A stretch of DNA of 64,000 nucleotides, from positions 4,856-68,855 of the forward strand of contig CAKSSR010000009.1 in NCBI GenBank assembly GCA_934489735.1, in the 5' to 3' direction. The DNA is from an uncultured Eubacteriales bacterium. Its GTDB lineage: Bacteria; Bacillota; Clostridia; Oscillospirales; Acutalibacteraceae. Shown here one piece after another: positions 3,120-42,607 of the stretch (position 1 is its first letter; each line of letters starts with the position of its first letter). The notes under the pieces were generated by a model. The model had not been told where the DNA came from. It was given only the letters and a program-made list of their open reading frames with translations, and ran no database searches. Position numbers and translations under genes: made by a program.

Positions 3120-3298
3120 ATAAAACGATATAGAATTTTTAGAAATATTTTTATAATATTAAGCAATGAGGAAGAAAATTTAAACTAAATTAAGGATGAT
3201 TGAAATTCAAATTACATAGTTTTAGAGAATTTGAGTTAAAAATAGCTGTTAAAGTGCAATCGGATGTGGTATAATAAGCAAAAGATTCAAATGAGCAG

Positions 3299-4354
3299 GT
3301 GAACGAATTGTTATCTATTATTGTAAATGGAAGTAAAGTTTTAATAAAAAGAGGGATTTTAGATTATTGTGGGGAATTTATCATAGACGAAGTAAAGTTT
3401 TCTAAGGCATTGATTATAAGCGACAGGAATGTTTCAAGGATTTATATGGACAGGCTGACGAAGCAGTTAAGCGACATGAACTTTAAAACTGACATATATT
3501 TAATAGAAAATGGAGAAAAGAGCAAAAATTTAGCGACAGCTGAGAAAATATATGACTTATTATCATCGACATTAATATCAAGGGCAGACTTAATCATTGC
3601 AATTGGAGGGGGAGTAGTTACAGACATAGCGGGATTTGTAGCTGCGACATACAAAAGGGGAGTAAATTTAATAAATATTCCAACATCTTTACTAGGAATG
3701 ATAGACGCATCGATAGGAGGGAAGAATGGAGTCAATACGAATTTTGGGAAAAATCTAGTAGGGACATTCTATCAGCCGAAGTTAGTCATCATTGATCCAG
3801 ACATTTTAAACACTTTACCAATGGATGAACTAAGAAGTGGTATAGCCGAGGCAATAAAGTACGGATGCATAAGTGACAGATATTTATTTAGTATTTTAGA
3901 GCAAGGCAGCTTGGATGAGAATAGGGAAGAAATAATAAGTAGATGCATAATAATAAAGAAAAAGGCAGTAGAGGACGACCCATTTGACGAAGGGGAGAGA
4001 ATGTTATTAAATTTTGGACATACCATTGGACATGCGATAGAGAAAATGTACAATTATGGGACTGTATCGCACGGGCAAGCGGTATCAATTGGAATGAACA
4101 TAATGACAAAGGTATCAGAAATGGAAGGATTGACTTCAAAAGGGACATATAAAAGGCTAACCTTACTATGCAAGAAATACAACTTACCGATAAGCGTTGA
4201 TGTACCAATAGACATGATATATAAAACGATATTAAATGACAAAAAGGCACTAGACGACTATATAAATTTAATATTTATCAAAGAAATAGGGAAAAGCTTT
4301 ATATACAAGTCAAAAATTGATAGATTCGTTGAACAAATGACTAAAATATGTTAG
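3299..4354 (+). CDS. aroB: 3-dehydroquinate synthase
   Basis: Motifs GGGVVTDIAGFVAATYKRG, NFGHTIGHAIE and HGQAVSIGM. An in-frame TTG at 3308 has a better RBS (AGGTGA, 5-nt spacer) than the GTG at 3299. Confidence 0.9.
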   Translation: MNELLSIIVNGSKVLIKRGILDYCGEFIIDEVKFSKALIISDRNVSRIYMDRLTKQLSDMNFKTDIYLIENGEKSKNLATAEKIYDLLSSTLISRADLIIAIGGGVVTDIAGFVAATYKRGVNLINIPTSLLGMIDASIGGKNGVNTNFGKNLVGTFYQPKLVIIDPDILNTLPMDELRSGIAEAIKYGCISDRYLFSILEQGSLDENREEIISRCIIIKKKAVEDDPFDEGERMLLNFGHTIGHAIEKMYNYGTVSHGQAVSIGMNIMTKVSEMEGLTSKGTYKRLTLLCKKYNLPISVDVPIDMIYKTILNDKKALDDYINLIFIKEIGKSFIYKSKIDRFVEQMTKIC

Positions 4355-4394: not shown

Positions 4395-5486
4395 ATGTCA
4401 TCTATTTGGGGGAGCAATGTAAAGATATCTATTTTTGGAGAAAGTCATGGAAAAGGGATAGGAGTTACAATCGACGGACTACCATCTGGAGAGAGAATAG
4501 ATATGGAAGAGATAGAATTTGAAATGAAAAGAAGGAGGCCGGGTGAGAATTCTTTATCGACTGGAAGAAAAGAGAAGGACAAGCCAGACATAATTTCAGG
4601 GATGCTAAACGGATTTACGACAGGGACACCTCTGTGCACTATTTTCTATAATAATGACATAAATCCTTTACATTATGATGAACTAAATTATATAATTAGG
4701 CCTGGCCATGCCGACTATACTGGCCATGTACGATACAAAGGGTTTGCAAATTTCACGGGAGGAGGGCATTTTTCTGGAAGATTGACATGTCCATTAGTAT
4801 TTGCAGGTGCAATATGTAGACAGATTTTAAGAAAAAGAGGGATAGACATTGGATCGCACATCAGTTCAATTGGAGAAATAAACGACGAAAGGTTTAATCC
4901 AACTAAAATTGATGAAAAGACTTTAAATAAGTTGGCAAAGTGTTCGTTCCCGACGATTGATGTTGGCATAAAGGAAGAAATGATTAAAAAAATAGAAGAA
5001 GTAAAGAAAGACAATGATAGCATTGGAGGAACTATAGAATGTGCTATTATTGGAATCAAAGCAGGATTAGGCTCGCCTATGTTCGACGGAATAGAAAGTA
5101 AGATATCTTCAATCATTTTTAGCATACCGGGAGTAAAAGGGATAGAATTTGGCAATGGCTTTTATTCATCAAGCATAAGAGGAAGCGAGAATAATGATCC
5201 GTTTTTTTATGAAAATGATAAAATTAAGACAAGGACTAACAATCATGGAGGAATATTGGGAGGAATAAGTTCAGGAATGCCAATAATATTTAGGGCAGGA
5301 TTTAAACCGACTCCATCGATTGGCAAGATTCAATCAAGTATTAGCTTAAAAGATAAGACTCAAGAGGAAGTTAATATAAAAGGCAGGCATGATCCATGCA
5401 TAGTCACCAGAGCAGTACCAGTAGTTGAGTCAGCTGCAGCAATTGCTATGCTTGATATATTATTGTCTGATATAAGTCAATTTTGA
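4395..5486 (+). CDS. aroC: chorismate synthase
   Basis: FGESHGKGIGVTIDGLPSG, RPGHADYTG and GRHDPCIVTRAVPV are typical AroC signatures. Confidence 0.92.
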   Translation: MSSIWGSNVKISIFGESHGKGIGVTIDGLPSGERIDMEEIEFEMKRRRPGENSLSTGRKEKDKPDIISGMLNGFTTGTPLCTIFYNNDINPLHYDELNYIIRPGHADYTGHVRYKGFANFTGGGHFSGRLTCPLVFAGAICRQILRKRGIDIGSHISSIGEINDERFNPTKIDEKTLNKLAKCSFPTIDVGIKEEMIKKIEEVKKDNDSIGGTIECAIIGIKAGLGSPMFDGIESKISSIIFSIPGVKGIEFGNGFYSSSIRGSENNDPFFYENDKIKTRTNNHGGILGGISSGMPIIFRAGFKPTPSIGKIQSSISLKDKTQEEVNIKGRHDPCIVTRAVPVVESAAAIAMLDILLSDISQF

Positions 5487-7699: not shown

Positions 7700-8068
7700 T
7701 TGAGACCAATAGCTAACTTTTTATGGATAATATTTGGCGGATTGATACTTAGTTTGTTCTGGGCAATGGCAGGCTTGATATTTTGCATATCCATAATAGG
7801 AATACCATTTGGAATGCAATGCTTTAAGTTTGCTTCGCTTATGTTGGCACCATTTGGGAAAGAGATAATTTATGCAAATGGAATCGGAAGCTTTATATTG
7901 AATATAATATGGATATTATTTTTTGGCTGGGAACTTGCAATTCTTTCATTAGTAATAGGAGTTTTGTGGTGTTTGACTATAGTCGGATATCCAATAGGAA
8001 TCCAATGTATTAAATTTGCTAAGCTTTCGTTTATGCCATTTGGCGCAGAGATAGTAAATTTAGAATAA
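7700..8068 (+). CDS. YccF-domain (DUF307) inner membrane protein
   Basis: Two internal repeats of the IIGIPFGMQCFKFA / VGYPIGIQCIKFA type, with four predicted TM segments. Confidence 0.8.
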   Translation: MRPIANFLWIIFGGLILSLFWAMAGLIFCISIIGIPFGMQCFKFASLMLAPFGKEIIYANGIGSFILNIIWILFFGWELAILSLVIGVLWCLTIVGYPIGIQCIKFAKLSFMPFGAEIVNLE

Positions 8069-8085
8069 TTTTATATATTTTTGGG

Positions 8086-8112
8086 AGGCTGTACTTAACA
8101 GCCTTTTAACTT
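8086..8112 (+). terminator. rho-independent terminator after the yccF-like gene
   Basis: AGGCTGT-ACTTA-ACAGCCT hairpin followed by a T-rich tract. Confidence 0.65.
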
Positions 8113-8217
8113 TTAGTATAAGTATATAAAGTTTGTTAAATTTTTGTTAAGTTTGATATTTTTATGAGCTAATATGATATAATGATTTCATATTGATTCT
8201 AAATGGAGGAAAATGTT

Positions 8218-8848
8218 GTGAATTTTATAGGAATGATTAAAAAAACTTTATGCATTTTATGTTTGGGCACCGCAATGTCAGCAATATCGGTAATGGCTAC
8301 TGACAATGACTTTTCAAAGTCTGAAATTTTTGGACAAAATAGGACTTATATGGGGATTGATAGAAACGACCACGCACACTCGTGACTTTAGTCATGAGTT
8401 AGTGGAAGAACCGTAGGAACTACGGGGATAGCTTGGTAAATATCTTTCCGTTAGGAGAGAGTTCCCAAGAACCCTGCGACTTTAGTTGTGGGAGGTTCAG
8501 GGAGTAGAACCATCAAAAGCTAAAGTAATGTCAGAAATATTTGATAAAGAAGTTACTTCTGGCAAGAGCTATCAATATGCTGATGAGTATGTAACAGCAA
8601 AATTTTCAGAAAATTTAGATGAAAGTGAAGCAAGATTAAAGGCTGAGATGGTAGAACAAGAACTTAGATCTGGCAGAAGTTGTTGCTATACATATGAGTA
8701 TGTAAAATTAAGGATTAAAGACAAAATGGAAGAAAGGCAAGCCAGAAACATAGCAGATGTATATGAAAGATTAGTTTTAATGGGAGTAAAAACTGAGTGT
8801 GCAGAAGGAATGGCTAAGCTAATGTTAGGAATTATCACCATTGGCTAA
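8218..8848 (+). pseudogene. disrupted paralog of the 8922..9776 secreted helical-repeat gene
   Basis: The N-terminal piece (GTG 8218 to TGA 8383-8385) encodes a signal peptide, VNFIGMIKKTLCILCLGTAMSA, nearly identical to the neighbour's. The C-terminal piece (track ORF 8486..8848) carries the same GKSYQYADEYV / GRSCCYTYEYV repeats in another frame. The 109-nt element lies between the two pieces. Confidence 0.7.
8392..8500 (+). repeat. 109-nt structured repeat element, copy 1
   Basis: 108/109 identical to 42450..42558. Predicted fold: a closing stem GAACC/GGUUC around three hairpins, namely CCGUAG-GAA-CUACGG, GCUUGG...(UCUUUCC-GUUA-GGAGAGA)...CCAAG and CCUGCGAC-UUUA-GUYGUGGG. Confidence 0.85.
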
Positions 8849-8921
8849 CGATTTGTATGTAGATTAGATTTAGAAAAAAGCATTATTTAATGTTTTGAAT
8901 AGAAAATTTGGAGGAAAAACT

Positions 8922-9776
8922 ATGAATTTTATAGGAATGATTAAAAAAACTTTATGTATTTTATGTTTGGGCACCGCAGTGTCAGCAGGATCTGTAATGG
9001 CAATGAATCCATGTGGAGGCCGCACACCAGCAGCTGTAATAATTGAGAGAGAAGTTAGTTCGGGCAGAAGCGTTCAGTATGCAACTGCATATGCAAACTT
9101 TATTCAAAGAGGATTTAGTGAAGCTAAAGCAAGAAAAATGGTAGAAATCTTTGAAAGTGAAACAAGAGCAGGCAGAAGTGTGCAGTATGCAGAGAAGTAT
9201 GCAATTAGTAGAGTCGAATATGTATTAGATGAATCGGAAGCAAGAAGATGTACAGAAGTATATGTAAATGAGCTCAAAGAGGGTAAAAGTGCGATATATG
9301 CAGAATTTTATTCCATAGCCTTAGTAAGAGGAAGAACGGATGAGGCTACAGCAAGGAAATCTGCAGAAATTTTTGAGCAAGAGGTCAAAGCTGGTAGAGG
9401 TGCTGTTTATGCATGTGAATATTCAAAGCTAATAGCATGCCATGGTTTGCCTGCAGAATCGGCAAGGAGGCTAGCAGATGCTGCAATCAGAGAAATGAAA
9501 GCAGGGAAAAGTCCAGTCTACATAGACCAATATATTAGATTAAAGGTAGGTCAAGAAACTGGTGAAGAAAGGCCGATGGATGAAGAGACAATAAGAGAAA
9601 TAGCAAGAATTTATGCTGATTTGGTTAACCAAGGAGTAGAACCAGAACAAGCTGAGCGTATAGCAAAAGCATTTTTAGGAATTGGCGGGATGGTAGTAGC
9701 CGTTGACGAGGAAGACGAAAACGATATTCAAGATGCGGTAAGGATTGCTTTAAATAAAGATAACAAAAATAGATAA
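8922..9776 (+). CDS. secreted helical-repeat protein (about 37-aa G[RK]SxxYAxxY repeats)
   Basis: ATG 8922 is preceded by GGAGGAAAAACT (the track ORF starts at 8895). Signal peptide MNFIGMIKKTLCILCLGTAVSAGSVMA. The motif G[RK]S/GxxY recurs at residues 53, 89, 126, 163 and 200, giving a period of 36-37. Confidence 0.8.
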   Translation: MNFIGMIKKTLCILCLGTAVSAGSVMAMNPCGGRTPAAVIIEREVSSGRSVQYATAYANFIQRGFSEAKARKMVEIFESETRAGRSVQYAEKYAISRVEYVLDESEARRCTEVYVNELKEGKSAIYAEFYSIALVRGRTDEATARKSAEIFEQEVKAGRGAVYACEYSKLIACHGLPAESARRLADAAIREMKAGKSPVYIDQYIRLKVGQETGEERPMDEETIREIARIYADLVNQGVEPEQAERIAKAFLGIGGMVVAVDEEDENDIQDAVRIALNKDNKNR

Positions 9777-15018: not shown

Positions 15019-18000
15019 ATGAATTTGAAGTTTTTTACATTGTTTTTTATTATATTAATGACAATAGAGCTAAATATATATGCTTTGGATAATGATTGTA
15101 ACGAAATTGATCTAAATAATACGAATATATGTATGGATGATAATTGTAAATTACTGACTAAAGGAATGACTGAAAAAGAAAATGATGATAACTTTGTAGA
15201 AATGTGTGACAAAATCCATCATGCTAATGAAAATGAAAAGGAAAAGCATGGGGAAAAGATGAATAAATCTAGTATAGTGCAAGGTAATGGTGAAAAAGCT
15301 AAGGATGATATTGAATATTTAAATGAAAATACTAAGTGCGTATCAACTGAGATCGAGAATCATATAGAAGAGTTAGACCAATTTGATGGAAATAATGAGG
15401 AAAATAACAAAGAAATGTTCGCTCAGGATTTAAAGACGGCTGAAATAGATGAAAATGATTTAATAAGTGGTAGCGATACTCAAGGATCTACAGGGACCCA
15501 AAGTGATGAAAATATAAAACTTGAAAACGAGACATTAACTATTTCAGTGGTTGGCGAAGTTACTTCAGATATGATAAGCCCATATAAGAGCGCAGTGAGA
15601 AATGTAATATTAAATGATACCGTTACAAGTATAGGAACGGAAGCATTTTTGAATTGCAGAGCTTTGAAATCTGTAGAAGTTTCTAAGAATGTGGGAAGCA
15701 TAGGAAGAGGTGCATTTGCAGATTGTACTAGCCTGAAGGAAATAGTATTTAAAGGGTTGCCTACGATAGATAAAGAGAATGTAGTATTCAGTGGACTAAA
15801 TACGACTATTTATTATCCGTTAAGCGAAAGTGGTTGGCAAAGTATAGTCAGTAATAAAAGCAGTAGTACTTATCAAGGTGCGACTAATATAGAATGGGTC
15901 GGATATAACTATTTTACTTATTGCGGAAACAAAAACCAGAACGGAGGAAGGAATTTAATAGATATAATTAATGAAGTTTCAAATTCGGAGTACGAATTAA
16001 GCATAATTAAGTCTAAAGCAGCGGATAGTAGTGGATTCGATATGATAGACTATAGTGATGACGAAATAAATAATAATGAAAATCGAACATTACTAATCCC
16101 TAATGGCTACACAGTTTCATCAATAACTATAGAAGATGGAGTAACAGGAATAGGAGCCAATGGCTTTAGAATGGGTGATGAAAAAATTGATGGCATAAAG
16201 GAAATTGTAATCCCGGAAAGCGTAAAATCAATAAATGAAAACGCATTTTATGGTCTTACAAGTTTAACTTCTGTTATATTTGAAGGAAAGTTTCCAAAAG
16301 TAAGCGGGACCAATACATTTAAAGATTGCAAAGTTACATTTCATTGCAATATGCATTATTGTAATGACAAAGAGTTTATAAAATTGACTGGAGAAACTAA
16401 ATGTTTTGGAGCTGAAGAAGCGAAATGGGACATATTTGGTTATTGCGGGAAAGGAAATTCAAAGATATTGAAGTGCACTTTAAAGAAAATAGAAGAAATT
16501 GGAGAGGATCATATATACAAAGCAGAGATAAATGTGGACTCTTCTTACGGCAGTGATTACTATATGGAAGATTATACTGCCATCAGGAGGTTTATACCAG
16601 AAGAATATACCAAGTATATTAAATATTTAATGCTGGACGTAAACATAAAGAACATAGGGGACTACGCCTTTAACGGATTAAGTGCGCTTAAATGGATTAT
16701 AATTAATGATAAGATTGAAAAAATAGGCAAGAATGCATTTGATGGATGCAATCGTTTAAAAGAAATAGATTTTATTGGGGATATGCCAGAGATAGGAGAG
16801 TTTGCCTTTAAAAATATTGCAGATTCAGCAACGATTTACTACGAAAGAGGCAATACAACTTGGAATAATGCTGAAGAAAATGGTATAAATATTAATAAAA
16901 ATGCAAGCTATAGAGGAGCAACTAATTTAAAATGGGCTGAGTGTCATCATTCAAGACATAATAGTAAAGGAACTGTATATAAAAGATGGACTGAATATGA
17001 CAATGGCAGTTATAAGAAGTTAGCATTCATGGGATACGGAATGATAGTAGACGATAATAATAATGAAAGTGTTTATGGAGAGGGATACTCCCCGACAACA
17101 ATAGAAATAAAAGAAGGATTGATATCTTCTGGTAAGTATTATAGATGGACTGCTACGAAAAATGCAATTTTTGCAGATACTGTTCAAATTCTAACTGAAA
17201 ATTCATTTAGAAGTAATAATTTAAGTGATATATTGTTGCCAAAAGGTTTAAAAACGATTGGGTACGCTGCTCTTTCTGATTTAAAAAGAGTTAATATTAC
17301 ATTTCAAAGTTATCCAACTTCTATGAACGGTTGTATGTTTGCCTACTGGGATAGTGCAGATAGGAATAAAACTAATCCTACGATATACTATCCTATTAAT
17401 AACAACAACTGGATTACAGCCAAGAGTGGGAATAAGAGAATAGTTGATAATACTTCTTTTGGAAACGGGATAAATATAAAATGGATAGGATATTGTTACT
17501 GCGGGGACAAAAGTGTTAACAACGGGGAAGATGTAAGATGCGAAGTTGAGAAAACGAGTGACGGAAGTTACAAAATGAGAATAACGGGCAAAGGAAACAT
17601 TAGAGATTATGAGCTAGACGATAGAATGATTCCAGAAAGTTATTCAAAAGATGTAAGGACATTGACCGTAGATTCAGGGGTAACAGGAATAGGGGCACAT
17701 GCATTTGAGAATTATAACAGCCTGAAGTCGGTAGACATAAATGGGGACTTATCAAAGATTGGCAGCAAAGCATTTTCGAATTGCCTTGAGTTAGGGACAA
17801 TAGACATTGCAGGGGCATTTCCACAAGAATTTAGTGAAGATGCATTTAACAATATTGACGTAGACGTATATTATTTATCAGACAAATGGAATAATGATAA
17901 GAAAGCACAAGAAGCGATAACGAATAACAAGCATGCAGGAGCAAGTCGCATAAATTGGTATAGCGACAATGTAACTGTTATTAAATGTGGGAATAAAATA

Positions 18001-21000
18001 TATTGCTATATTTATAAGAACCAAAATAAAATGGCATTCAGGGGCAGTGGGCACATAGATAATTATACAGGTAGTAATATACTTGCGAAAAGCAAAGACA
18101 TAAATGGCAAAGAAATAGATGTAAAACCAGAAGATATATATTATCTTGAGATGGAAAATGAAATACAAACTATAAGTAATAATATGCTAACTGGTTTTGT
18201 AAACTTAAAGACTATAGATACTAGCAATAAATTAATTGTTATAGGTAGAGAGGCATTCAAAAATAATAAGCTTTTAGAATCAGTAGCACTTCCAGATCAA
18301 ATAAATGAAATTTATGAAAGTATATTTGAAGGATGTGAGAGTTTAAAAAATGTAAACTTCCCGAGGAATACTAAAGGAATTACTAAGGCAATGTTTAAAA
18401 ATTGTAAGAGTTTATCTGAAATAGAACTACATGATGAAGTAACAGGAATAGGAGAAGAAGCATTTAGCGGTTGCAGCAGTTTAGACTATATAGAAATTCC
18501 CAAGTCAGTGACAACAATTGGCAAACAAGCGTTTGAAAGCTGTAGCGATTTAAATTCAATAAGCATCTTCGGGCAACCAAAGATAGAAGAAAATGCTTTT
18601 AAAGATTGCAAAGGTTTAAGAAAAATATACTTTTATGGAGATTTCCCTACTATAGATTCAAGTTCTTTTAAGAATATTGGTAGCAAAAATGATCCAACAA
18701 TTATATATTATCCAGGAGAGAATGAAACATGGAAAGCAAAGTATGATGAAAAGGTACTAACAGAAACATATGGAGGAGCGACAAATATAATTTGGACGCC
18801 GTATAATATCATAAATTGTGGACCGGATGACAATCCATCAAGTGTCATATGTCAATTAGTGAAAACTGATGGAGAAAATTGCTATAAAGCAAGAATAGTT
18901 AAGAATGGGGCAAGCAAAGGGGAAGAAATGAGAGATTATGAGGAAGGAAATAACATATTAACTGATACAAATTATGATAATTGTGAGATAAAATCTATAA
19001 AGATTGAAGAAGAAATATCGAGCATAGGAAACAATGCATTCAGTGGGTTTGAAAGTCTAGAGAGAATTTCATTTTACGGAGACTTTGTTACTGTAGGAGA
19101 GAATGCTTTTGGAGGAATAGGCAACAATGATCAAGCGGTTGTTGCATATTATCACGGGGACAATGCGACATGGAGAAAGAAGTATGAAGCCAAAGAGCTT
19201 ACAAGTGACTACAAGGGGGCAACCAATATAAAATGGATGCCATATGATATGATTTATTGTGGACTAATCAGTGAAAATGAAGGAGAGAATTTGATATGTA
19301 AACTTATTTTAACTGAAGGAGGGGAATACATAGCAAAGATATCAAAGAATCAAGCTGATTCTAGTGGGAAGATGAGAGATTATAATGCAGGAATGAACAT
19401 ATTGAAAGGAACTGAGTTTGAATCATATAATGTTACATATGTAGAAATAGATGAAGGTGTGACAACTATAGGCGCAAATGCCTTTAATGGATTGACAAGT
19501 ATTCAAAGAATTTATTTTTATTGTGACTATCCAGGAAAGGACAATACAGCGGAAGACAATATAGGAGAAAATGCATTCAAAGGGCTAGGAAAAAGTGACG
19601 ATCCAGTTATAGCATATTATCCGGAAAATACTAGCGATAGAAATGATGAAGCGGTACATATGTGGAACGGGATAAATGTGACAGATAAATTGACATCAGT
19701 TTTTAAAGGTGCAAGTAATATATTGTGGAAGCCATATAATAGTATATATTGCGGCGCCAATAGTGAAAACAATTATAGCGATTTGATCTGTAGACTGATT
19801 TATGTAAGCGGCGAGCAGGAAAATGAAGTATACATAGCGAGAATATCAAAGAATGGATTAGCTTCTGATGGTAAGATGAAAGATTATGATACAAATAATG
19901 GAAATATAATATCATCGGATAAGGATTTTAAAGATTTTGCTAACAAAATTCAATATATAGAGATAGAAGATGACGTAAGTAGTATAGGCAAGAATGCCTT
20001 TAATGGACTGACCAACGTGAGAAAAATGAATTTTTATGGAGATTTTCTTACTATAGGCGATAATGCTTTTGTAGGTATTGGAACAAATGGCAATCCAACA
20101 GTAATATATTATCCAGGAAACAATGAGACATGGCAAGAAAAGTATGAAGAAAATTTATTGACAAACACATATGCAGGAGCAACTAATGTAGTTTGGACGC
20201 CATATGATTCGATATATTGCGGGAAAGTAGGAAATGAAAAAGCTTTAATTTGCAAATTGATTTTAATCGGTAAGGATAATTATATGGCTGTAGTGTCAAG
20301 CAATGATAAGGAAAATGGAGAGATGTCAGACTATGAGGAAAATGAAAATATTTTTACAACATATAGTAGAAGTAAACAAAGCAGTACAGGAGCATTAGGC
20401 AATAGTGAAGGAATTGTTGAGAAAATTCACGAAATAGAAAGCAGTTTTGAGACAGGAGAAGGAGAAGAGATTCAAACTATTGATAATACCAGCATTGGGG
20501 ATAAGATAAGCGTAGTAAGAATAGGAGAAGGGGTTAAATCTATAGGCAAAAATGCTTTCAGTGGATTAAAAAATTTAAGAGCTGTTGTTATAGAGGGAGA
20601 ATTGAGCACGATAGGGGAAGGAGCATTTAAGAATTGTAGCAATTTAGAGGGAATTGTCTTTCTTAATGAAGCTGTAAGTAATACTTCTATTAAATCAGAT
20701 GCATTTTTAAATGATTCATTTAGTTTTTATTATCCTATTGATAGCAAAATTGACAATAAATCAATGGAAGGTAAAGGCGCACAGAGAATAGACATAAAGC
20801 CATATAAGTATTGTATCAATTGCGGGGACTTCAGTATAAGCGATGGAGACAACGCTGTAGCTTTAGTAGTGCCACATGGCAACAATAAGTACAAAATAGA
20901 GATAATAGGAAGCGAAAAGGTAGGGGACTACGAAGCAAGTTATGGCATGTTGGACGACAGTAGCATAGAAATATCAAAGAATGACATAATTTCAATAAGC

Positions 21001-24000
21001 ATAGGTGATGGAATAGATACAATAGGCGAAACTTCTTTCTACAACTTTAGCGGAGTAAAAGAGATCCAGTTTAATGGAGCAATACCTAGCCAAATCGATG
21101 AGAAGGCATTTAAAGGGATAAGCAACGTAAATATCTATGTACGTGAAGACGAAGAATTCCCAACGAATGCAAAGATATATAAAAGTGCTGAAAATGTAAA
21201 GTGGTTCAAGTATTGCTATTATAACTACTGTGGATTAAAAGATAAAGACAATGGAATAGACTTAATATATAGGATTACTATTGATGATAATAATGATAAT
21301 ATATTGAATATATTTGGAAATGGAGAGATGAGAAATTATAATGATGGAAATATAGTAAGTAATGAATATGAAATAAAAGCCGTAACTGTAAGTAATGGAA
21401 TTAGCAATTTAGGAACAAACTTTATGAATGGTATGTCGTCTTTAAAAACGGTATCCATGATGAATAACATAACTAAGATAGGAGACAGAGCTTTTGAAAA
21501 TTGTATTGGTTTAGAAGAAATAGTATTTCCAAATGATTTAGAATATTTAGGAGGAAGTGTTTGTCTTGGATGTACTGGCTTGGAATCAGTGAAGCTTTCA
21601 AGTAAAATAAGTAAGATAAATAATAATGCATTTAACGGCTGTACAGGATTGACTAAAGTAGAACTACCGGAAAGTGTGACCAGGATAGGGGAAAATGCCT
21701 TTGAGGGTTGCACAGGTTTAACCGAATTTAAAATTCCAAGCCAAGTTGTAGCTATTGGAAATTCAGCTTTTAAAGATTGTACAAGAATTGAGAACTTTTC
21801 GTTTTATGGCAACTTTATTAAGGAAATAGGAGAAGATGCATTTGGAAAAATTGGACAAGAAAATAATGCGACGGTTATGTACTACCCAGGGGATAATTCG
21901 ACATGGACTAAACAAGAATATGTTTTAAGTAATCCTAACTATAAAGGAGCAAAGAATATAAAATGGGTAGCATATATGTATGGCTACTGCGGGGACTTGA
22001 GTACAAACGAAGGTAAAGACATAATGTATGTCGTGCTAAGTAGAGATGACAAGTATACAGTTGAAATTTCGGGAAATGGTAAGATGAGGAACTATATTTC
22101 AGGAGATTCTTTATTATTTGCTTTCAACGGGAAGAAAAATATTGAAAGTATAAAGGTAGATGAAGGAGTAACTAACATAGGTTCTAACGCTTTTTACGAT
22201 TATACTTCTCTGGTTGATATAACTTTACCGAGCACTATGAATTATATAGGAATGTCATCGTTTGAGAACTGTAAATTGCTATCAGAAATAGAGATTTCGG
22301 AAAGAATAACTGTGATTGAAGAAAGAACTTTTAAAGGCTGTGAAAGCTTGACCAATATAAAAGGAAGTTTGAGTAACATAACGAAGATATGTAAGTCAGC
22401 TTTCCATGACTGTCTTAAGTTAAGATCTATAAGTTTTTCGGAGAAATTGATATCAATAGAAGACAACGCATTTAAGAATTGTAAGGAAATGTATGTAAAA
22501 AATAACCCAGATGGACTTATGGTTATGGGAAGAGGAGCATTTTATAATTGCTGCAAGTTGAGTTCGATATCAATTCCGAATGGAATAAAGAACATATTTG
22601 ATGACACATTTAATAATTGTTCGAGTTTGAATGAGATAAAGTTAGCTGACAGTATCGAAAGTATAGGAAAATCTGCATTTAGTAAGTGCGTGTCAATTAA
22701 ATATATGTACTTGCCAGCAAATATTAAAGAAATAAGAGAAAATGCTTTCTCATTATGTGATAATATTAAAGAAATTTACTTTAACGGAGACTTCCCCGCA
22801 ATAAGTAACAATGCATTTTTAAATTTGAATACCAAGGCATATTATAACGAAGAGATTTGGACAAGTATTGATGCTGCTAAGGCTTTAAATGATAAGAAGT
22901 ATAAAGGCGCAAAGAATATAGAGTGGATTAATTATATTAAAATAATAGAGTGCGGGAAAGCAAATCCTAAAGATGTAATTTGCAGGATAGTAAGAAGTGA
23001 TAATTCTAAATATAAGGCCATATTTACTGGAATTGGAGAAATAAAAGACTATACTAAAGATAATTTACTTTTAGGAGCAGATAAGGATGTTTCTAATAGT
23101 ATAATTGTTGCAGAATTTGGCGATGGAATAACAAATGTAAGTAATTATCTATTATACGATTGGATAAATTTACAATCTGTAAAGCTTTCTGATACAATAA
23201 CATGGCTAGGGAATAATAGCTTTGCTGAAAACCAGTCGTTAAAGGTTCTACATATCCTTAAAAATATAACTAGACTTGGCTCAGAAGTACTGGCGAATTG
23301 TAAAAACTTAGAGAAAATTTACTTTTATTGCGACTTCCCTCAAGAAGTGGGAGAAAATGCATTTGAAAATTTGAAGACAATTGCATATTATCCTAAAAAT
23401 AATGAGACTTGGACAGCAAAAATCAATAAAAATGGTGCCGGAGCTGTGAGAATATCAGACATAGATTGGAATTACGTAGGAAGAGATGAACCAAATGACT
23501 GTAATCGGATTGCATATTGTTCCGGCGACGTGGATGAGGCAGAGATTGATGAATCTTTGGTTAATGATGAATTAAATATTGAAGAGCATTTGGATAAGAA
23601 CGAAGATAAAACAAACAGCCCTGAGCTTGATATTGAAAAGGATTTGTTATCGTCAGGTGAGAGATTGGTTGAAAATGAAAACAAATCTTTATCAAGTGAT
23701 TGCATGAATGGAAATGTTGCAGAACAAAACGATGAAATCGTTGATGAAAAATATAGAGGAGCTGAAGAAATTATTTGGGCTCAAAATGAATTTGTATATT
23801 GCGGCTTGGAAGAAGAAAATGAAGGCAAGAATGTTATATGCGAATTCGTACCCGTGGATGACCAAAGTAACTATAAAGCAGTAATTTCTATCAATGGATC
23901 GAGTCCAAGCGGCAAAATTAAGGACTTTAATGACAATATATTAAGCGATAATAACCTTGATTACAATATAACTTCTGCTGTCATAGAAGACGGAATAACT

Positions 24001-27000
24001 TGCATAAGTAATAATTTGTTTAAGAACGCCAGCAGCTTGGAAACAGTAGAAATTAAGAACAATGTGAGCTGTATAGGAAAATCCGCCTTCGAAGGATGTG
24101 AAAAGATTAAAGAAGTTTTAGTTCCCGACAGCGTATTTGAAATAAATGAAAAGGCTTTTGCAGAATGTAGCAGCCTGGAATCAATAGAATTCTCTAATAA
24201 TTTGAATAAAATAGGAACAAGTGCATTCGAAAATTGTAAAAGCTTATCAAGTTTTGACCTTCCGGATACTTTGGAAAGCATAGGAGAAAAAACTTTTTAT
24301 AATTGTAATGGAATTAATTCAATAATAATCCCCCAGAATGTCATAAGTATAGGAAAATTTGCATTCGCTAAGTGCGCATCTTTGAAAATCGTGAATTTGC
24401 CAGAAAAATTAAGCAATATTGAAGACGGCCTGTTCCAAGATTGTACAAATTTGAATAATATTAATATCCCTGATCAATTGGAAAGGATCGGTTCAAAGGC
24501 ATTTGCAAGCTGTGCAGGAATCAAAACTTTAAAGATCCCTGATAAAGTAACAGAAATAGGTGAGTCAGCATTCAGTGGATGTAGTGCTTTGCAAGAAATA
24601 AAATTACCGACGTCTTTAAAGGAAATAAGCAACTACTTGCTAAATGGATGCACAATGTTGACATCGGTAGAGATCCCATTGCAAATTGAAAAAATATGGG
24701 AGGAATCGTTTGGCGGGTGCATAAAAATAAAAAATATTTACTTTCAAGGAGACTGCCCTACATTTAAAGGTTCCAACGCATTTGAAGGAATTGATGGAGC
24801 AACTATATATTATCCAAGTGGCGATGAATATAAAGGATGGACAAATGAAGTAAGTAGTTCACCAACAGAGTATCAAGGCGCCAAAAATTTGACGTGGAGT
24901 GGCTACGGATATGTATACTGTGGCTTGGAAAAAGAAAACGGTGGCAAGAATGTAATATGCAGATTTATTCCAGATGGAAGCTATTATAAAGCAGTAATAT
25001 CAATAAGTAGCCCTGACTCAAGCGGAAAGATAGCTGATTATTATAATTTTACTAATTGGAACGACTACATATCAAAAATTAGCTCTATAATAATAGAAAG
25101 AGGAGTGACTGAAATAGGGAGCGGTTTGTTTAGGAGTGCAACGATATACTGGAACGAAAAAGAAGCAATTTCTATAGCAGATACTGTTACAAATATAAAA
25201 ATGGGAGCTTTCGGTGTTACTGAAATTAAGAACGGATCAAGGAAAATATTAAAAATTCCTAAAAGTGTTAAAAGTATTGAACAAGGGGCATTTTCAATCA
25301 TTGGTTTCAATGAGATATATTTTGAAGGAAGTTGCCCTATAGCTAACGGATATACGTTTGGTTCAAAGGGGAGTGATGGAACTATAGCATATTATCCAGC
25401 AGGAGATAACTCGTATAGTAAAGCAATTGAACAATATCCTAATTTTGAATGGAAAATGTGTTGCTTTTGTGGGAAAACTAATGAAAATGAAGGAAGAAAT
25501 GTTATTGCAACGTTTACTTCTAATGAAAATGGGAACTACAATGTGTATATATCTACCCATTTGGGAAATAAAGAAGAAAGTGAAACAAGTAAAAAGAGTG
25601 GAATGCAAGACTATTCAAGTAAGGAACAGACGCCCTGGAACAAGTTTAGACATAAAATACAAGATATTACTATATCAGCGCAAGTATTAAGTGTCGGTTC
25701 TTATGCATTTAGTGAATGTGAAGGATTAAAAAATGTAAAAATTTATAGTTCAGAAATAAACTCGAATGCATTTAGTAAGAGCAATATTGTAAAATTAATG
25801 ATATTTAATAAAATTCCAATAAGAGAAAGAGCTTTTTATAAATGTGGCACATTGGATTCAGTTATTTTTTATTCTGGTTTTGAATCTATTGGGAAAGAAG
25901 CATTTGCTTACTGCAGAGATTTTAATTCTTTATATGCAGATAGTGAAAAAATTAACAATTCAATACCAATAGAACCACAGGGTGATGTTGGAACTGATGG
26001 AAATATTGAAGATGCCTTTAAAGGAAATAAGATAAATTTATACTGTAGCGAGGCGATATATAATAAAATGTATAAAAAATTTGGAGACGTATTTGTATTT
26101 GGAGGGAAAAACTGTAGCCGTAAGATAGCAACAATCATAGATTATAATGATAGCGACAATAATTATTATGAATATAGTATTGACAATAAGATGTTGCATA
26201 TCTATGGGAATGATTGTGGATTAATTGATGTATATAATCGTGGAAACGAAGAAGGATTTAAAAAATTGGATATTGCAAAATATATTGAGAATGTAGAGAC
26301 AATTATAATAGAAGACGGAATTACAGAAATGGGTTACTATGGTTTTTCAAAATTTACTAACCTCAAGTCAGTGAAGATCAGCAATACTGTAACAGATATA
26401 TATGGATCTTTATTCAGTGGTTGCAAAAACTTAACTTCAGTAATATTACCTGAAAATATAATAAGTTTAAAATATAATTTATTTAAGGACTGTACAAGTT
26501 TAACTTCAGTAACAATACCTAAGAGCGTGACAAGTTTAGGAGACAATTTGTTTTACGGATGTAAAAGTTTAACTTCAGTAACAATACCTGAGGGTGTGAC
26601 AAGCTTAGGGGATAATTTATTTAACGGATGTACAGAGATTAAATCCATTTATTTTCTGGGATATAATGTTCCTGAGATGACAGGCAGCACACTTGAAGGA
26701 CTTGGAAGCGAAGGTAATGCAGTGACTTTATATTATCCATATTATAGTGATATCTGGAAAAGTCAAAATATTACTACTAATTACAAAGGGGCTACTAATG
26801 TAGTTGGAAAGGCCTTCGTTGGAGGATACTGCGGCGATCCAAATGTAAACAATGGTAAGAATATATCATGTATATGTAGGGAAACCTCAACAGATGTATA
26901 TGAAATGATCATCTTTGGGAAGGGAAAGATACAAGATGGGATAAACGGTAGTAATAATTACGGATACTATCGTTACGATTCGTTTTTTTATGATTTTATT

Positions 27001-28023
27001 GACGAAAATATAATAAATAGTATTACATCTGTTATAATAGAAGAGGGAGTAACTAATATTGGAATAGGAACTTTTGCGAGCCTTACTGGATTAGTTAGCG
27101 TAAAACTACCGTCAAGTATAGTTAGCATAGGGGAATATGCATTTGGATATTGTGAGTACTTAACAAGTGTAAACTTTGAAGGAGGAATCAAGACGATAGG
27201 GGAATATGCATTCTATAATAGCGGATTAGTGACAATAGAAATTCCCAGCAGTGTAGTTGACATAGGGGAAAGTGCATTTGATAGTTGTGGGCATTTGACA
27301 AGCGTAACCTTGAATGAAGGAATCAAGACGATAGGGGAATATGCGTTTTATGATAGCGGATTAGGGACAGTAGAAATTCCCGGCAGTGTAGTTAGCATAG
27401 GGAGAGGTGTATTTAGTGAATGTAATAGCCTTAAAGAGATGCATTTTAAAGGAAACTTCCCTGAAATGATGAATATTTTTGGCACAAGTAATCCTGCAAT
27501 AACTATATTTTATCCAGAAGGTAATACGACCTGGGAAAACAACAAAGGGTCAATTAACGCAAAATATACGAATGTGAAATTTGGTACGGATAAGCCAGAA
27601 GATACAAGCAATGTAACTCCAGGAAGTGATGATCAGGCAAGCAATGAGTCTGCAAATGATACCTATATAGTGCCATATGGCTACGGAAGTATAGTATTTT
27701 CAGGGAATTATAGTGAAATAAAGAAGATATATATACCAAGTTCAGTTGATTATGTTTATTTTGACCTGAGTAATTTCAAAAACTTGAAGTATATAATATT
27801 TTATGATAAGAATCTACCTGAGAATTTAGATTTAAACAAAGAAAGTATTGAGAAAAATTTAGAGAAATATGATATTTATTGCGTTTCGAGATTAGTACAT
27901 GACTTTAAAAAGATTAATAGTTTATATCTTTTATATAAAAATTTAATAAAATGGAGACCTGGATGCTACATGGTTGTCACAGTATCTAACGTATTTAAGG
28001 AAAAGGAAGCAAACCCATTGTGA
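15019..28023 (+). CDS. giant (4334 aa) secreted BspA-type leucine-rich-repeat surface protein
   Basis: AGGAGG RBS and signal peptide MNLKFFTLFFIILMTIELNIYA. Dozens of ~23-aa LRRs of the form IxIPxSVxxIGxxAFxxCxxLxxI. They are organised into about 18 super-modules that end in FxGDFPxxxxxAF...TIYYPxxNxTW...YxGAxNIxW, each followed by a YCGxxxxNxGxN(V/L)IC...YxAxI...GxMxDY head. Confidence 0.9.
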   Translation: MNLKFFTLFFIILMTIELNIYALDNDCNEIDLNNTNICMDDNCKLLTKGMTEKENDDNFVEMCDKIHHANENEKEKHGEKMNKSSIVQGNGEKAKDDIEYLNENTKCVSTEIENHIEELDQFDGNNEENNKEMFAQDLKTAEIDENDLISGSDTQGSTGTQSDENIKLENETLTISVVGEVTSDMISPYKSAVRNVILNDTVTSIGTEAFLNCRALKSVEVSKNVGSIGRGAFADCTSLKEIVFKGLPTIDKENVVFSGLNTTIYYPLSESGWQSIVSNKSSSTYQGATNIEWVGYNYFTYCGNKNQNGGRNLIDIINEVSNSEYELSIIKSKAADSSGFDMIDYSDDEINNNENRTLLIPNGYTVSSITIEDGVTGIGANGFRMGDEKIDGIKEIVIPESVKSINENAFYGLTSLTSVIFEGKFPKVSGTNTFKDCKVTFHCNMHYCNDKEFIKLTGETKCFGAEEAKWDIFGYCGKGNSKILKCTLKKIEEIGEDHIYKAEINVDSSYGSDYYMEDYTAIRRFIPEEYTKYIKYLMLDVNIKNIGDYAFNGLSALKWIIINDKIEKIGKNAFDGCNRLKEIDFIGDMPEIGEFAFKNIADSATIYYERGNTTWNNAEENGININKNASYRGATNLKWAECHHSRHNSKGTVYKRWTEYDNGSYKKLAFMGYGMIVDDNNNESVYGEGYSPTTIEIKEGLISSGKYYRWTATKNAIFADTVQILTENSFRSNNLSDILLPKGLKTIGYAALSDLKRVNITFQSYPTSMNGCMFAYWDSADRNKTNPTIYYPINNNNWITAKSGNKRIVDNTSFGNGINIKWIGYCYCGDKSVNNGEDVRCEVEKTSDGSYKMRITGKGNIRDYELDDRMIPESYSKDVRTLTVDSGVTGIGAHAFENYNSLKSVDINGDLSKIGSKAFSNCLELGTIDIAGAFPQEFSEDAFNNIDVDVYYLSDKWNNDKKAQEAITNNKHAGASRINWYSDNVTVIKCGNKIYCYIYKNQNKMAFRGSGHIDNYTGSNILAKSKDINGKEIDVKPEDIYYLEMENEIQTISNNMLTGFVNLKTIDTSNKLIVIGREAFKNNKLLESVALPDQINEIYESIFEGCESLKNVNFPRNTKGITKAMFKNCKSLSEIELHDEVTGIGEEAFSGCSSLDYIEIPKSVTTIGKQAFESCSDLNSISIFGQPKIEENAFKDCKGLRKIYFYGDFPTIDSSSFKNIGSKNDPTIIYYPGENETWKAKYDEKVLTETYGGATNIIWTPYNIINCGPDDNPSSVICQLVKTDGENCYKARIVKNGASKGEEMRDYEEGNNILTDTNYDNCEIKSIKIEEEISSIGNNAFSGFESLERISFYGDFVTVGENAFGGIGNNDQAVVAYYHGDNATWRKKYEAKELTSDYKGATNIKWMPYDMIYCGLISENEGENLICKLILTEGGEYIAKISKNQADSSGKMRDYNAGMNILKGTEFESYNVTYVEIDEGVTTIGANAFNGLTSIQRIYFYCDYPGKDNTAEDNIGENAFKGLGKSDDPVIAYYPENTSDRNDEAVHMWNGINVTDKLTSVFKGASNILWKPYNSIYCGANSENNYSDLICRLIYVSGEQENEVYIARISKNGLASDGKMKDYDTNNGNIISSDKDFKDFANKIQYIEIEDDVSSIGKNAFNGLTNVRKMNFYGDFLTIGDNAFVGIGTNGNPTVIYYPGNNETWQEKYEENLLTNTYAGATNVVWTPYDSIYCGKVGNEKALICKLILIGKDNYMAVVSSNDKENGEMSDYEENENIFTTYSRSKQSSTGALGNSEGIVEKIHEIESSFETGEGEEIQTIDNTSIGDKISVVRIGEGVKSIGKNAFSGLKNLRAVVIEGELSTIGEGAFKNCSNLEGIVFLNEAVSNTSIKSDAFLNDSFSFYYPIDSKIDNKSMEGKGAQRIDIKPYKYCINCGDFSISDGDNAVALVVPHGNNKYKIEIIGSEKVGDYEASYGMLDDSSIEISKNDIISISIGDGIDTIGETSFYNFSGVKEIQFNGAIPSQIDEKAFKGISNVNIYVREDEEFPTNAKIYKSAENVKWFKYCYYNYCGLKDKDNGIDLIYRITIDDNNDNILNIFGNGEMRNYNDGNIVSNEYEIKAVTVSNGISNLGTNFMNGMSSLKTVSMMNNITKIGDRAFENCIGLEEIVFPNDLEYLGGSVCLGCTGLESVKLSSKISKINNNAFNGCTGLTKVELPESVTRIGENAFEGCTGLTEFKIPSQVVAIGNSAFKDCTRIENFSFYGNFIKEIGEDAFGKIGQENNATVMYYPGDNSTWTKQEYVLSNPNYKGAKNIKWVAYMYGYCGDLSTNEGKDIMYVVLSRDDKYTVEISGNGKMRNYISGDSLLFAFNGKKNIESIKVDEGVTNIGSNAFYDYTSLVDITLPSTMNYIGMSSFENCKLLSEIEISERITVIEERTFKGCESLTNIKGSLSNITKICKSAFHDCLKLRSISFSEKLISIEDNAFKNCKEMYVKNNPDGLMVMGRGAFYNCCKLSSISIPNGIKNIFDDTFNNCSSLNEIKLADSIESIGKSAFSKCVSIKYMYLPANIKEIRENAFSLCDNIKEIYFNGDFPAISNNAFLNLNTKAYYNEEIWTSIDAAKALNDKKYKGAKNIEWINYIKIIECGKANPKDVICRIVRSDNSKYKAIFTGIGEIKDYTKDNLLLGADKDVSNSIIVAEFGDGITNVSNYLLYDWINLQSVKLSDTITWLGNNSFAENQSLKVLHILKNITRLGSEVLANCKNLEKIYFYCDFPQEVGENAFENLKTIAYYPKNNETWTAKINKNGAGAVRISDIDWNYVGRDEPNDCNRIAYCSGDVDEAEIDESLVNDELNIEEHLDKNEDKTNSPELDIEKDLLSSGERLVENENKSLSSDCMNGNVAEQNDEIVDEKYRGAEEIIWAQNEFVYCGLEEENEGKNVICEFVPVDDQSNYKAVISINGSSPSGKIKDFNDNILSDNNLDYNITSAVIEDGITCISNNLFKNASSLETVEIKNNVSCIGKSAFEGCEKIKEVLVPDSVFEINEKAFAECSSLESIEFSNNLNKIGTSAFENCKSLSSFDLPDTLESIGEKTFYNCNGINSIIIPQNVISIGKFAFAKCASLKIVNLPEKLSNIEDGLFQDCTNLNNINIPDQLERIGSKAFASCAGIKTLKIPDKVTEIGESAFSGCSALQEIKLPTSLKEISNYLLNGCTMLTSVEIPLQIEKIWEESFGGCIKIKNIYFQGDCPTFKGSNAFEGIDGATIYYPSGDEYKGWTNEVSSSPTEYQGAKNLTWSGYGYVYCGLEKENGGKNVICRFIPDGSYYKAVISISSPDSSGKIADYYNFTNWNDYISKISSIIIERGVTEIGSGLFRSATIYWNEKEAISIADTVTNIKMGAFGVTEIKNGSRKILKIPKSVKSIEQGAFSIIGFNEIYFEGSCPIANGYTFGSKGSDGTIAYYPAGDNSYSKAIEQYPNFEWKMCCFCGKTNENEGRNVIATFTSNENGNYNVYISTHLGNKEESETSKKSGMQDYSSKEQTPWNKFRHKIQDITISAQVLSVGSYAFSECEGLKNVKIYSSEINSNAFSKSNIVKLMIFNKIPIRERAFYKCGTLDSVIFYSGFESIGKEAFAYCRDFNSLYADSEKINNSIPIEPQGDVGTDGNIEDAFKGNKINLYCSEAIYNKMYKKFGDVFVFGGKNCSRKIATIIDYNDSDNNYYEYSIDNKMLHIYGNDCGLIDVYNRGNEEGFKKLDIAKYIENVETIIIEDGITEMGYYGFSKFTNLKSVKISNTVTDIYGSLFSGCKNLTSVILPENIISLKYNLFKDCTSLTSVTIPKSVTSLGDNLFYGCKSLTSVTIPEGVTSLGDNLFNGCTEIKSIYFLGYNVPEMTGSTLEGLGSEGNAVTLYYPYYSDIWKSQNITTNYKGATNVVGKAFVGGYCGDPNVNNGKNISCICRETSTDVYEMIIFGKGKIQDGINGSNNYGYYRYDSFFYDFIDENIINSITSVIIEEGVTNIGIGTFASLTGLVSVKLPSSIVSIGEYAFGYCEYLTSVNFEGGIKTIGEYAFYNSGLVTIEIPSSVVDIGESAFDSCGHLTSVTLNEGIKTIGEYAFYDSGLGTVEIPGSVVSIGRGVFSECNSLKEMHFKGNFPEMMNIFGTSNPAITIFYPEGNTTWENNKGSINAKYTNVKFGTDKPEDTSNVTPGSDDQASNESANDTYIVPYGYGSIVFSGNYSEIKKIYIPSSVDYVYFDLSNFKNLKYIIFYDKNLPENLDLNKESIEKNLEKYDIYCVSRLVHDFKKINSLYLLYKNLIKWRPGCYMVVTVSNVFKEKEANPL
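26422..26628 (+). repeat. three tandem 69-bp units (one LRR each) inside the giant gene
   Basis: Units at 26422-26490, 26491-26559 and 26560-26628. Units 2 and 3 are highly similar at the DNA level (tg.a.aagtttaacttcagtaacaatacct...). Confidence 0.8.
27181..27450 (+). repeat. two tandem 135-bp units (two LRRs each) inside the giant gene
   Basis: The stretch g(g/a)aggaatcaagacgataggggaatatgc...attcccAgcagtgtagtt recurs at 27181 and 27316. Confidence 0.8.
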
Positions 28024-42371: not shown

Positions 42372-42449
42372 AAGCTTTGTAAATTTAAAAAATGATAAAG
42401 GTGAGAGATGAATTGTGCTTCCAGCTATTAATAAAAGTAATCGATTGAT

Positions 42450-42558
42450 TCATGAGTTAGTGGAAGAACCGTAGGAACTACGGGGATAGCTTGGTAAATA
42501 TCTTTCCGTTAGGAGAGAGTTCCCAAGAACCCTGCGACTTTAGTCGTGGGAGGTTCAG
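42450..42558 (+). repeat. 109-nt structured repeat element, copy 2
   Basis: Identical to 8392..8500 except C42545 versus T8487. It ends 49 nt before ATG 42608. Confidence 0.85.
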
Positions 42559-42607
42559 TAAAATATTGAAGGAAATCTTTAAAGTAAATTGAGAGGGAAT
42601 TAAAATT

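Follow-up and report, generated by a model that had tools for sequence, protein, structure and literature searches.

Two gene-less IS200/IS605 derivatives, very probably descended from an IStron, carry a predicted omega-RNA scaffold in an uncultured Eubacteriales bacterium

Introduction

The stretch of DNA analysed here, 64 kb from an uncultured Eubacteriales bacterium (the window), contains the same 109-nt sequence at two distant loci, and one of the two lies between the halves of a broken gene. What is this sequence, and how did it come to be there? A preliminary description, made from the letters of the window, had noted the repeat and its three hairpins and had left the choice between a small mobile element of RNA type and an unclassified ncRNA family. 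By comparing both copies with related sequences in plasmids, phages, genomes and metagenomes, we find that they consist of the fused ends of a DNA transposon, and that both are very probably gene-less derivatives of an IS200/IS605 element whose full-length form is an IStron.

In such elements, as in ISDra2, the scaffold of the omega-RNA, which serves TnpB as guide RNA, is encoded from the 3' end of tnpB to the right end (RE) of the transposon, and the guide is host DNA beyond the RE. Published descriptions of omega-RNA scaffolds give three consecutive stem-loops, the first of which pairs to the 3' end of the scaffold, and one of which doubles at the DNA level as the recognition site of TnpA.

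Results

The two copies (8392-8500 and 42450-42558) are identical at 108 of 109 positions, the sole difference being T8487/C42545, and identity breaks off sharply at either border of both. The preliminary description had reported exactly this duplicate with its one mismatch, and it is indeed limited to two copies: neither blastn-short nor a covariance-model scan with filters off revealed a third in the 64-kb window. One extra covariance-model match in the window, at 8337-8402 (20.6 bits), is the hairpin of the transposon left end (LE), and is attributable, on sequence, to the likeness of the LE and RE hairpins. The G+C content of the element is about 48%, versus about 33% for the window. The earlier failure to place the sequence in a known RNA family is matched by an Rfam scan of the whole 64-kb window, which gave no match at gathering score; at E<=10, the sole match at the two loci was sub-threshold, to RF02841 Ref70. 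Membership of Ref70 was rejected: its gathering score is 115, the hit reached 28.6 bits, and the central part of the model had no counterpart. A tRNA/tmRNA scan of the window found none.

On the + strand, the sequence folds with a minimum free energy of -35.1 kcal/mol (z = -2.75; - strand, z = -1.3). In a MAFFT alignment of 20 short-form relatives, 92% of cells were paired, as against 37-48% in slid controls, 13 pairs changed on both sides, and 0 of 500 shuffles matched this result. Among 33 distinct model-aligned sequences 98.8% of cells were paired and 16 pairs changed on both sides, in an alignment that was fitted to the covariance model and leans towards it. RNAalifold independently returned hairpins 1 and 3, the closing helix and, for hairpin 2, the outer stem. 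Neither set of relatives varied in hairpin 1, in the closing helix or in the outer stem of hairpin 2, partly because relatives were gathered with an exact 29-mer that spans these three helices; covariation therefore tests just hairpin 3 and the inner stem of hairpin 2. For these two, the three-hairpin junction that had been drawn on paper is upheld by covariation as well as by folding energy and z-score, with double-sided pair changes present among many homologs. The mismatch between the copies, which had been called structure-neutral, indeed turns a G-C pair of hairpin 3 into G-U (pair 71-80).

The last 93 nt of each copy match the DNA just 3' of tnpB in many IS200/IS605 elements of Bacillota. 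Blastn against plasmids matched 671 records, mostly from Enterococcus, and plasmids of C. botulinum matched at 82.5%. In the best matches, the aligned stretch falls on, or shortly after, the 3' end of an annotated gene for the IS200/IS605 RNA-guided endonuclease TnpB, and matches in phage records were similar. On C. botulinum pNPD1_1 (L001), the match begins 39 nt past the tnpB stop, on the E. faecium plasmid NZ_CP040851.1 (L002) it overlaps the end of a tnpB that is preceded by tnpA, and homology 3' of tnpB was seen at about 60 other loci. The 29-mer from the start of the scaffold, GAACCGTAGGAACTACGGGGATAGCTTGG, occurs at more than 107 genome loci among the matches listed, almost all in Bacillota; most of those with enough upstream DNA have a full-length tnpB immediately 5', and the genes downstream of these relatives are mutually unrelated. 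In a four-way alignment, similarity ceases in every sequence at ...GGTTCAG, which corresponds to window positions 8500 and 42558 and which, by this alignment, is the transposon right end. The homologs lie at the 3' end of tnpB, on the same strand, and end at the RE, the window copies being without tnpB; the three stem-loops and the long-range pairing to the 3' end are present as well, the long-range helix being invariant in the alignments. Judged by position and fold, the three hairpins are a TnpB omega-RNA scaffold.

Upstream of the scaffold, the 16 nt shared by both copies (TCATGAGTTAGTGGAA) are transposon left end, to which copy 1 adds 30 nt leftward (Table 1). Full-length relatives have, in order, TTGAT, about 8 nt, the outer stem, CTCGTGAC-TTTA-GTCATGAG and TTAGT..., and the window has the same at 8357-8405. 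The LE is conserved in L094, L041, L001 and L101, and TTGAT stands directly 5' of the homologous LE in L094, L041, L001, L115, L118 and L119, and also in L047, an independent mini-element in which the same LE is fused to the same scaffold at a different junction. Because LE and TTGAT match those of full-length relatives, copy 1 is a complete element of 139 nt (8362-8500), made of a 44-nt LE, 2 junction bases and 93 nt of scaffold and RE. The start of the LE has a one-base ambiguity (TTGAT/AGAAACG in the window and L115 versus TTGAT/TAGAAACG in L118 and L119). The LE hairpin (8379-8398) and the RE hairpin (8473-8492) are alike, with a GAC-TTTA-GTC core, and we take their spacing, 17 nt between cleavage point and left hairpin and 8 nt between right hairpin and element end, to be like that of IS608-type ends. 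No ORF lies inside the 139-nt unit. Copy 1 thus has the features of a palindrome-associated transposable element, or PATE: homology at LE and RE, subterminal palindromes, insertion 3' of a pentanucleotide and no gene inside. TTGAT is also the published TAM of the C. difficile IS605 IStrons (bioRxiv 10.1101/2023.11.20.567912).

These boundaries bear on several points of the preliminary description. That copy 1 is an insertion agrees with our result; the bounds assigned to it, 8392-8500, do not, and are corrected to 8362-8500 (139 nt). The suspicion that the lesion extends left of 8392 was well placed, since the in-frame stops at 8383 and 8389 lie within the LE, and the extra hairpin drawn in the flank (CUCGUGAC-UUUA-GUCAUGAG, 8379-8398) is real and is the LE hairpin of the transposon. 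The flanks show no terminal inverted repeats and no target-site duplication, as had been stated, an absence that is the normal signature of IS200/IS605 elements such as IS608 and ISDra2. Neither of the two identities suggested, a ncRNA family without classification or a mobile element of RNA type, was borne out, as homology at LE and RE makes the sequence a DNA-transposon derivative.

Table 1. Positions of the transposon-derived features and of the genes around them. Coordinates are those of the window, except for the last three rows, which refer to the loci named.
Feature	Position	Strand	Details
Interrupted gene, 5' half	8218-8361	+	GTG start; signal peptide; last codon GAT lies inside TTGAT
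TTGAT target motif, copy 1	8357-8361	+	Abuts LE start
LE, copy 1	8362-8405	+	44 nt; 96-98% identical to LE of L115, L118 and L119
LE outer stem, copy 1	8370-8373 / 8402-8405		CCAC / GTGG
LE inner hairpin, copy 1	8379-8386 / 8391-8398		CTCGTGAC-TTTA-GTCATGAG
Scaffold and RE, copy 1	8408-8500	+	Model score 109.4 bits
PK/closing helix, copy 1	8408-8412 / 8494-8498		GAACC with GGTTC
SL1, copy 1	8411-8425		
SL2, copy 1	8432-8469		Inner stem 8443-8460
SL3, copy 1	8473-8492		RE hairpin
RE terminus, copy 1	8496-8500		TTCAG
Guide segment, copy 1 (predicted)	8501-8520	+	GGAGTAGAACCATCAAAAGC; directly 3' of RE; by position alone
Interrupted gene, 3' half	8501-8848	+	Repeat region; stop 8846-8848
Intact paralog of interrupted gene	8895-9776	+	Common N-terminus MNFIGMIKKTLCILCLGTA; outside element
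TTGAT abutting copy 2	42445-42449	+	Directly abuts copy 2
LE remnant, copy 2	42450-42463	+	3' half of hairpin, TCATGAGTTAGTGG; first 30 nt absent
Scaffold and RE, copy 2	42466-42558	+	Model score 112.4 bits
Guide segment, copy 2 (predicted)	42559-42578	+	TAAAATATTGAAGGAAATCT; by position alone
Empty sites (predicted, flank/flank)			...ATGGGGATTGAT/GGAGTAGAACC... and ...AATCGATTGAT/TAAAATATTGAAGG...
Helices of the folded RNA			Closing GAACC/GGUUC; CCGUAG/CUACGG; CUUGG/CCAAG around UCUUUCC/GGAGAGA; CCUGCGAC/GUCGUGGG
LE-less unit, L068	~3155-3244		
LE-less unit, L110	~7778-7915	-	
LE-less unit, L099	~5228-5365	-	

Two ORFs surround copy 1, one of 55 aa with a signal peptide (8218-8385) and one of 120 aa (8486-8848), and both resemble the neighbouring gene at 8895-9776. 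Joining 8361 to 8501 by removal of 8362-8500 opens a frame of 163 aa that unites the signal peptide with the repeats of the neighbouring paralog, and the downstream frame begins a codon at 8501; that copy 1 is an insertion which splits a gene, as had been proposed, is borne out in this way. When the reconstructed 163-aa protein served as query in a homology search, no uninterrupted ortholog came up, only the same truncated 3' half as called in other strains (P0001, 106 aa, 98% identical) and paralogs at 39% identity, among them P0002. The insertion is identical in 3 other metagenome-derived strains (191/191 nt), and all four sampled strains carry it, none having an empty-site allele. Evidence on excision thus comprises the ORF restored on removal and the one LE-RE junction common to both copies, beside no empty allele in four strains and no tnpA in the window. 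Because no empty allele was found, the boundaries of copy 1 rest on homology and frame restoration.

The interrupted gene and its neighbour (8218-8848 and 8895-9776, +) are tandem secreted paralogs whose repeats, about 35 aa long, follow the pattern E..SG(R/K)S.QYA..Y; Pfam assigns them to no significant family (sub-threshold TetR_C_13_2, E 0.0094), and they have only a handful of homologs among 5.8 billion proteins. A likely promoter of the interrupted gene is visible by eye at about 8150-8185 (+), with TTGATA, a 19-nt spacer and the extended -10 TGATATAAT; the length of that spacer made it escape the consensus scan. Elsewhere in the window, nearly the whole of a single ORF of 4334 aa (15019-28023, +) is made up of BspA-type leucine-rich repeats (PF13306, 20 stretches, 1216 bits), and a gene adjoining aroA (54526-55530, -) encodes an Xer-like tyrosine recombinase (Phage_integrase plus a SAM-like N-terminal domain) that is unrelated to the repeats.

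A metagenome scan with a subfamily-specific 35-mer returned two contigs only, one of them L115, on which TTGAT, LE, about 500 nt of non-coding DNA, Y1 tnpA, tnpB (366 aa), scaffold and RE follow one another; its LE is identical to that of copy 1 at 50 of 51 nt. Three further loci, L117, L118 and L119, encode proteins 99% identical to L115 TnpB and have the same ends in different flanks, and all four carry Y1_Tnp and OrfB_IS605 genes and an RE 100% identical to that of the window. RF00028 matches just inside the LE of L115 and L118 at 68-72 bits (66-81 bits with L041 and L002; threshold 50), and because of this group I intron the parent is an IS605-family IStron. The window itself contains neither tnpA nor tnpB (Pfam, tblastn) and no group I intron core (RF00028), so that the two copies are not themselves IStrons. 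The parent TnpB shares 73% identity with TnpB proteins of C. difficile. Parent elements are known from gut-metagenome contigs, and two of the L117-L119 samples have ENA accessions close to that of the sample with the window's species.

The right flank of L115 is the right flank of copy 2 (291 nt, 100%), and its left flank is unrelated and is not the glnS side. Chimeric assembly by way of the 95-nt repeat may have produced L115, and would suffice because that repeat is shared; alternatively, L115 may come from a strain with a full element and a rearrangement at this site. As proof that a full element once stood at the site of copy 2, L115 was set aside, its left flank being unrelated.

Among the more distant relatives, L002 (1022-1362) and L041 (4310-4715) have a group I intron inside the LE and are annotated just as tnpA/tnpB; given these RF00028 matches, L002 (Enterococcus) and L041 (Epulopiscium) are unannotated IStrons outside Clostridia. 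L094 has an internal deletion (~3120-3450) that joins the beginning of Y1 tnpA to the final ~34 tnpB codons, and in L103 only the first ~140 tnpB codons remain, joined to the scaffold. In this IS605-type family, deletion derivatives of all sizes seem to be common.

Copy 2 has the same LE-RE fusion junction as copy 1 at an unrelated locus, each copy lying 3' of TTGAT, and the identity of the junction indicates that both stem from one deletion event. Its RE is 100% identical over 95 nt to L115, L117, L118 and L119. When copy 1 and copy 2 are aligned with full-length LEs, the missing 30 nt lie between the normal cleavage point and a position just past TTTAG, which resembles the RE-terminal TTCAG; no microhomology was seen by eye at this deletion. 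Copy 2 is probably immobile. It is also present in another strain, and one Logan contig breaks off within its sequence, as a repeat would be expected to cause; the repeat accounts for breaks in short-read assemblies at this sequence. Copy 2 follows glnS with no terminator between them, a promoter scan detected no + strand promoter beside either copy, and only one terminator-like site was seen on the + strand, at 8081-8109, which is 5' of the interrupted gene and away from the element. Directly 3' of copy 2, 42608-43597 (+) encodes a secreted protein of 329 aa with no Pfam match and a glycine-rich C-terminal half (GGSGGNGG..GGDGGRGGKGGNGG).

Other units lack the LE as copy 2 does. Three loci of one MAG (L068, L110 and L099) have TTGAT followed by the last 11 tnpB codons and the scaffold, in three different interrupted genes, and phage phiCD27 (L120, 1484-1536) has TTGAT followed by a 54-nt RE remnant beside a recombinase gene. 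Every one of these LE-less units has its junction where TnpA would normally cleave.

Discussion

Starting from the homology, the boundaries, the covarying fold, the restored reading frame and the existing parent documented above, the history of the two copies may be reconstructed as follows. The full-length element would have comprised LE, group I intron, Y1 tnpA, tnpB, omega-RNA and RE in that order, and an internal deletion would have fused the 44-nt LE to the last 93 nt, giving a PATE of 139 nt. The third stem-loop, as single-stranded DNA, would be the RE hairpin bound by TnpA, and TnpA supplied in trans by a full-length copy presumably moved the PATE as single-stranded DNA. Copy 1 would then have inserted 3' of TTGAT within the secreted-protein gene and inactivated it. 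Self-splicing of copy 1 from the mRNA is impossible because it has no intron core, and its host gene stays broken. Copy 1 appears to have everything that TnpA needs; copy 2, presumably after loss of 30 nt of LE from the PATE, is without the 5' half of the left hairpin. In both copies the cleaved strand would be the G-rich + strand, which is the lagging-strand template, and a bias towards that template is known for IS200/IS605 transposition; with two copies, this agreement is weak.

If transcribed by read-through, each copy could yield an omega-RNA whose guide would be the 16-20 nt of host DNA 3' of ...GGTTCAG. Together with TnpB from a full-length copy elsewhere in the genome, this omega-RNA could direct cutting of the empty site (TTGAT plus guide) and so favour retention of the insertion. 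Retention favoured by TnpB in trans has been proposed for PATEs with omega-RNAs (PMC10055086).

Could the sequence instead represent an independent family of cis-regulatory or small non-coding RNAs, for instance riboswitches or leaders, with the downstream secreted-protein genes under its control? Both copies lie upstream of, and co-oriented with, secreted-protein ORFs, the fold is well supported and no Rfam family matches at gathering score; yet in dozens of genomes the same sequence adjoins the 3' end of tnpB and stops at the transposon boundary, the downstream genes of relatives are mutually unrelated, copy 1 sits inside a frame that reopens on its removal, and neither copy showed a terminator/anti-terminator or RBS-sequestering alternative. 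We regard such a regulatory role as extremely unlikely. We give practically no credence to the idea that these 109-bp direct repeats, in the same orientation 34 kb apart, are attL/attR-type repeats of a genomic island or prophage. The window does hold a tyrosine recombinase gene (54526-55530), but it is outside the interval, 12 kb from copy 2, and the interval itself has the housekeeping genes cysS, glnS, recD2, NAPRTase and P-type ATPase, with uniform GC content and skew. Moreover, the repeats are homologous to IS ends in unrelated contexts, and no strain with the exact 8501-42558 deletion and a single repeat was seen. Island or att-site identity was ruled out by the Pfam annotation of the interval.

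A further reading, that one or both copies are domesticated stand-alone guide RNAs which, through read-through transcription, serve a TnpB or a nuclease-dead TnpB-like repressor of TldR type encoded elsewhere and regulate host genes instead of aiding retention of the transposon, is in our view very unlikely. It would account for the fixation and 100% conservation of both copies across all strains sampled, but conservation among near-identical strains says little. Copy 2 has retained its whole scaffold without the mobility part, and lies in the leader region of a gene; scaffold retention is, however, partly an ascertainment effect of the way in which relatives were collected. Nor is there a TnpB-like gene in the 64-kb window, the guide is merely the adjacent flank, as it would be for any insertion, and the rest of the window offers no TTGAT-flanked match to either guide, the closest differing at 5 of 16 positions. 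Descent from an IStron by internal deletion is the reading that we adopt.

Under this descent, the exact junction of copy 2 with TTGAT in the absence of the LE is not what standard transposition would produce. One possible, though rather unlikely, source of such LE-less copies abutting TTGAT is a specific aberrant TnpA reaction in which the 3'-OH of TTGAT is joined to an internal pseudo-cleavage site, an idea that draws on the handful of junctions in copy 2, L068, L110, L099 and the phiCD27 remnant. In the window, that pseudo-cleavage site would lie just past TTTAG in the LE loop. If true, aberrant joining would immobilise the element and keep its omega-RNA module, giving rise to stand-alone guide RNAs retained by the host. 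The LE-less copies may accordingly be of interest for TnpA chemistry and for the origin of stand-alone guide RNAs.

Identification of copy 1 as a PATE explains the pseudogene at its locus, and illustrates what loss of the intron does to an IStron, in that insertion into a gene is no longer masked by splicing. It also flags the window's species as carrying, or having recently carried, an IS605-family IStron with active-looking TnpA and TnpB.

The nearest described systems are a C. difficile PATE that has IStron ends (Zedaveinyte et al., bioRxiv 10.1101/2023.11.20.567912) and, in G. stearothermophilus, PATE-like elements (Meers et al., PMC10055086). Like these, the window element is gene-less, with cognate LE and RE hairpins, TTGAT at the LE and no inverted repeats or duplications, and by analogy it would carry an omega-RNA that needs TnpB in trans. 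It differs from them in its sequence lineage and its length of 139 nt, in that copy 2 is without half of the LE, and in that mobilisation is here predicted. As for the omega-RNAs of ISDra2 and the CdiIStron, homologs of the scaffold lie at or after the 3' end of tnpB and end at the RE boundary, three consecutive stem-loops are present with the first region pairing with the 3' end, and the last stem-loop is common to TnpA recognition; unlike them, the window copies have no adjacent tnpB, keep 93 nt of scaffold, and encode an omega-RNA that is predicted. RF02841 Ref70 (Enterococcus sRNA 70) resembles the scaffold in the first 27 nt of its model, which match the scaffold start GAAGAACCGUAGGAACUACGGGGAUAG, and may in turn represent the omega-RNA of a related element in Enterococcus. 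Compared with CdISt1-type IStrons, the parents L115 and L118 likewise have a group I intron together with tnpA/tnpB, whereas the window copies are without the group I core. Since PATEs with omega-RNAs, and a PATE with IStron ends, have already been described, the present element is a further example of its kind, and a natural example of an omega-RNA module surviving without its nuclease.
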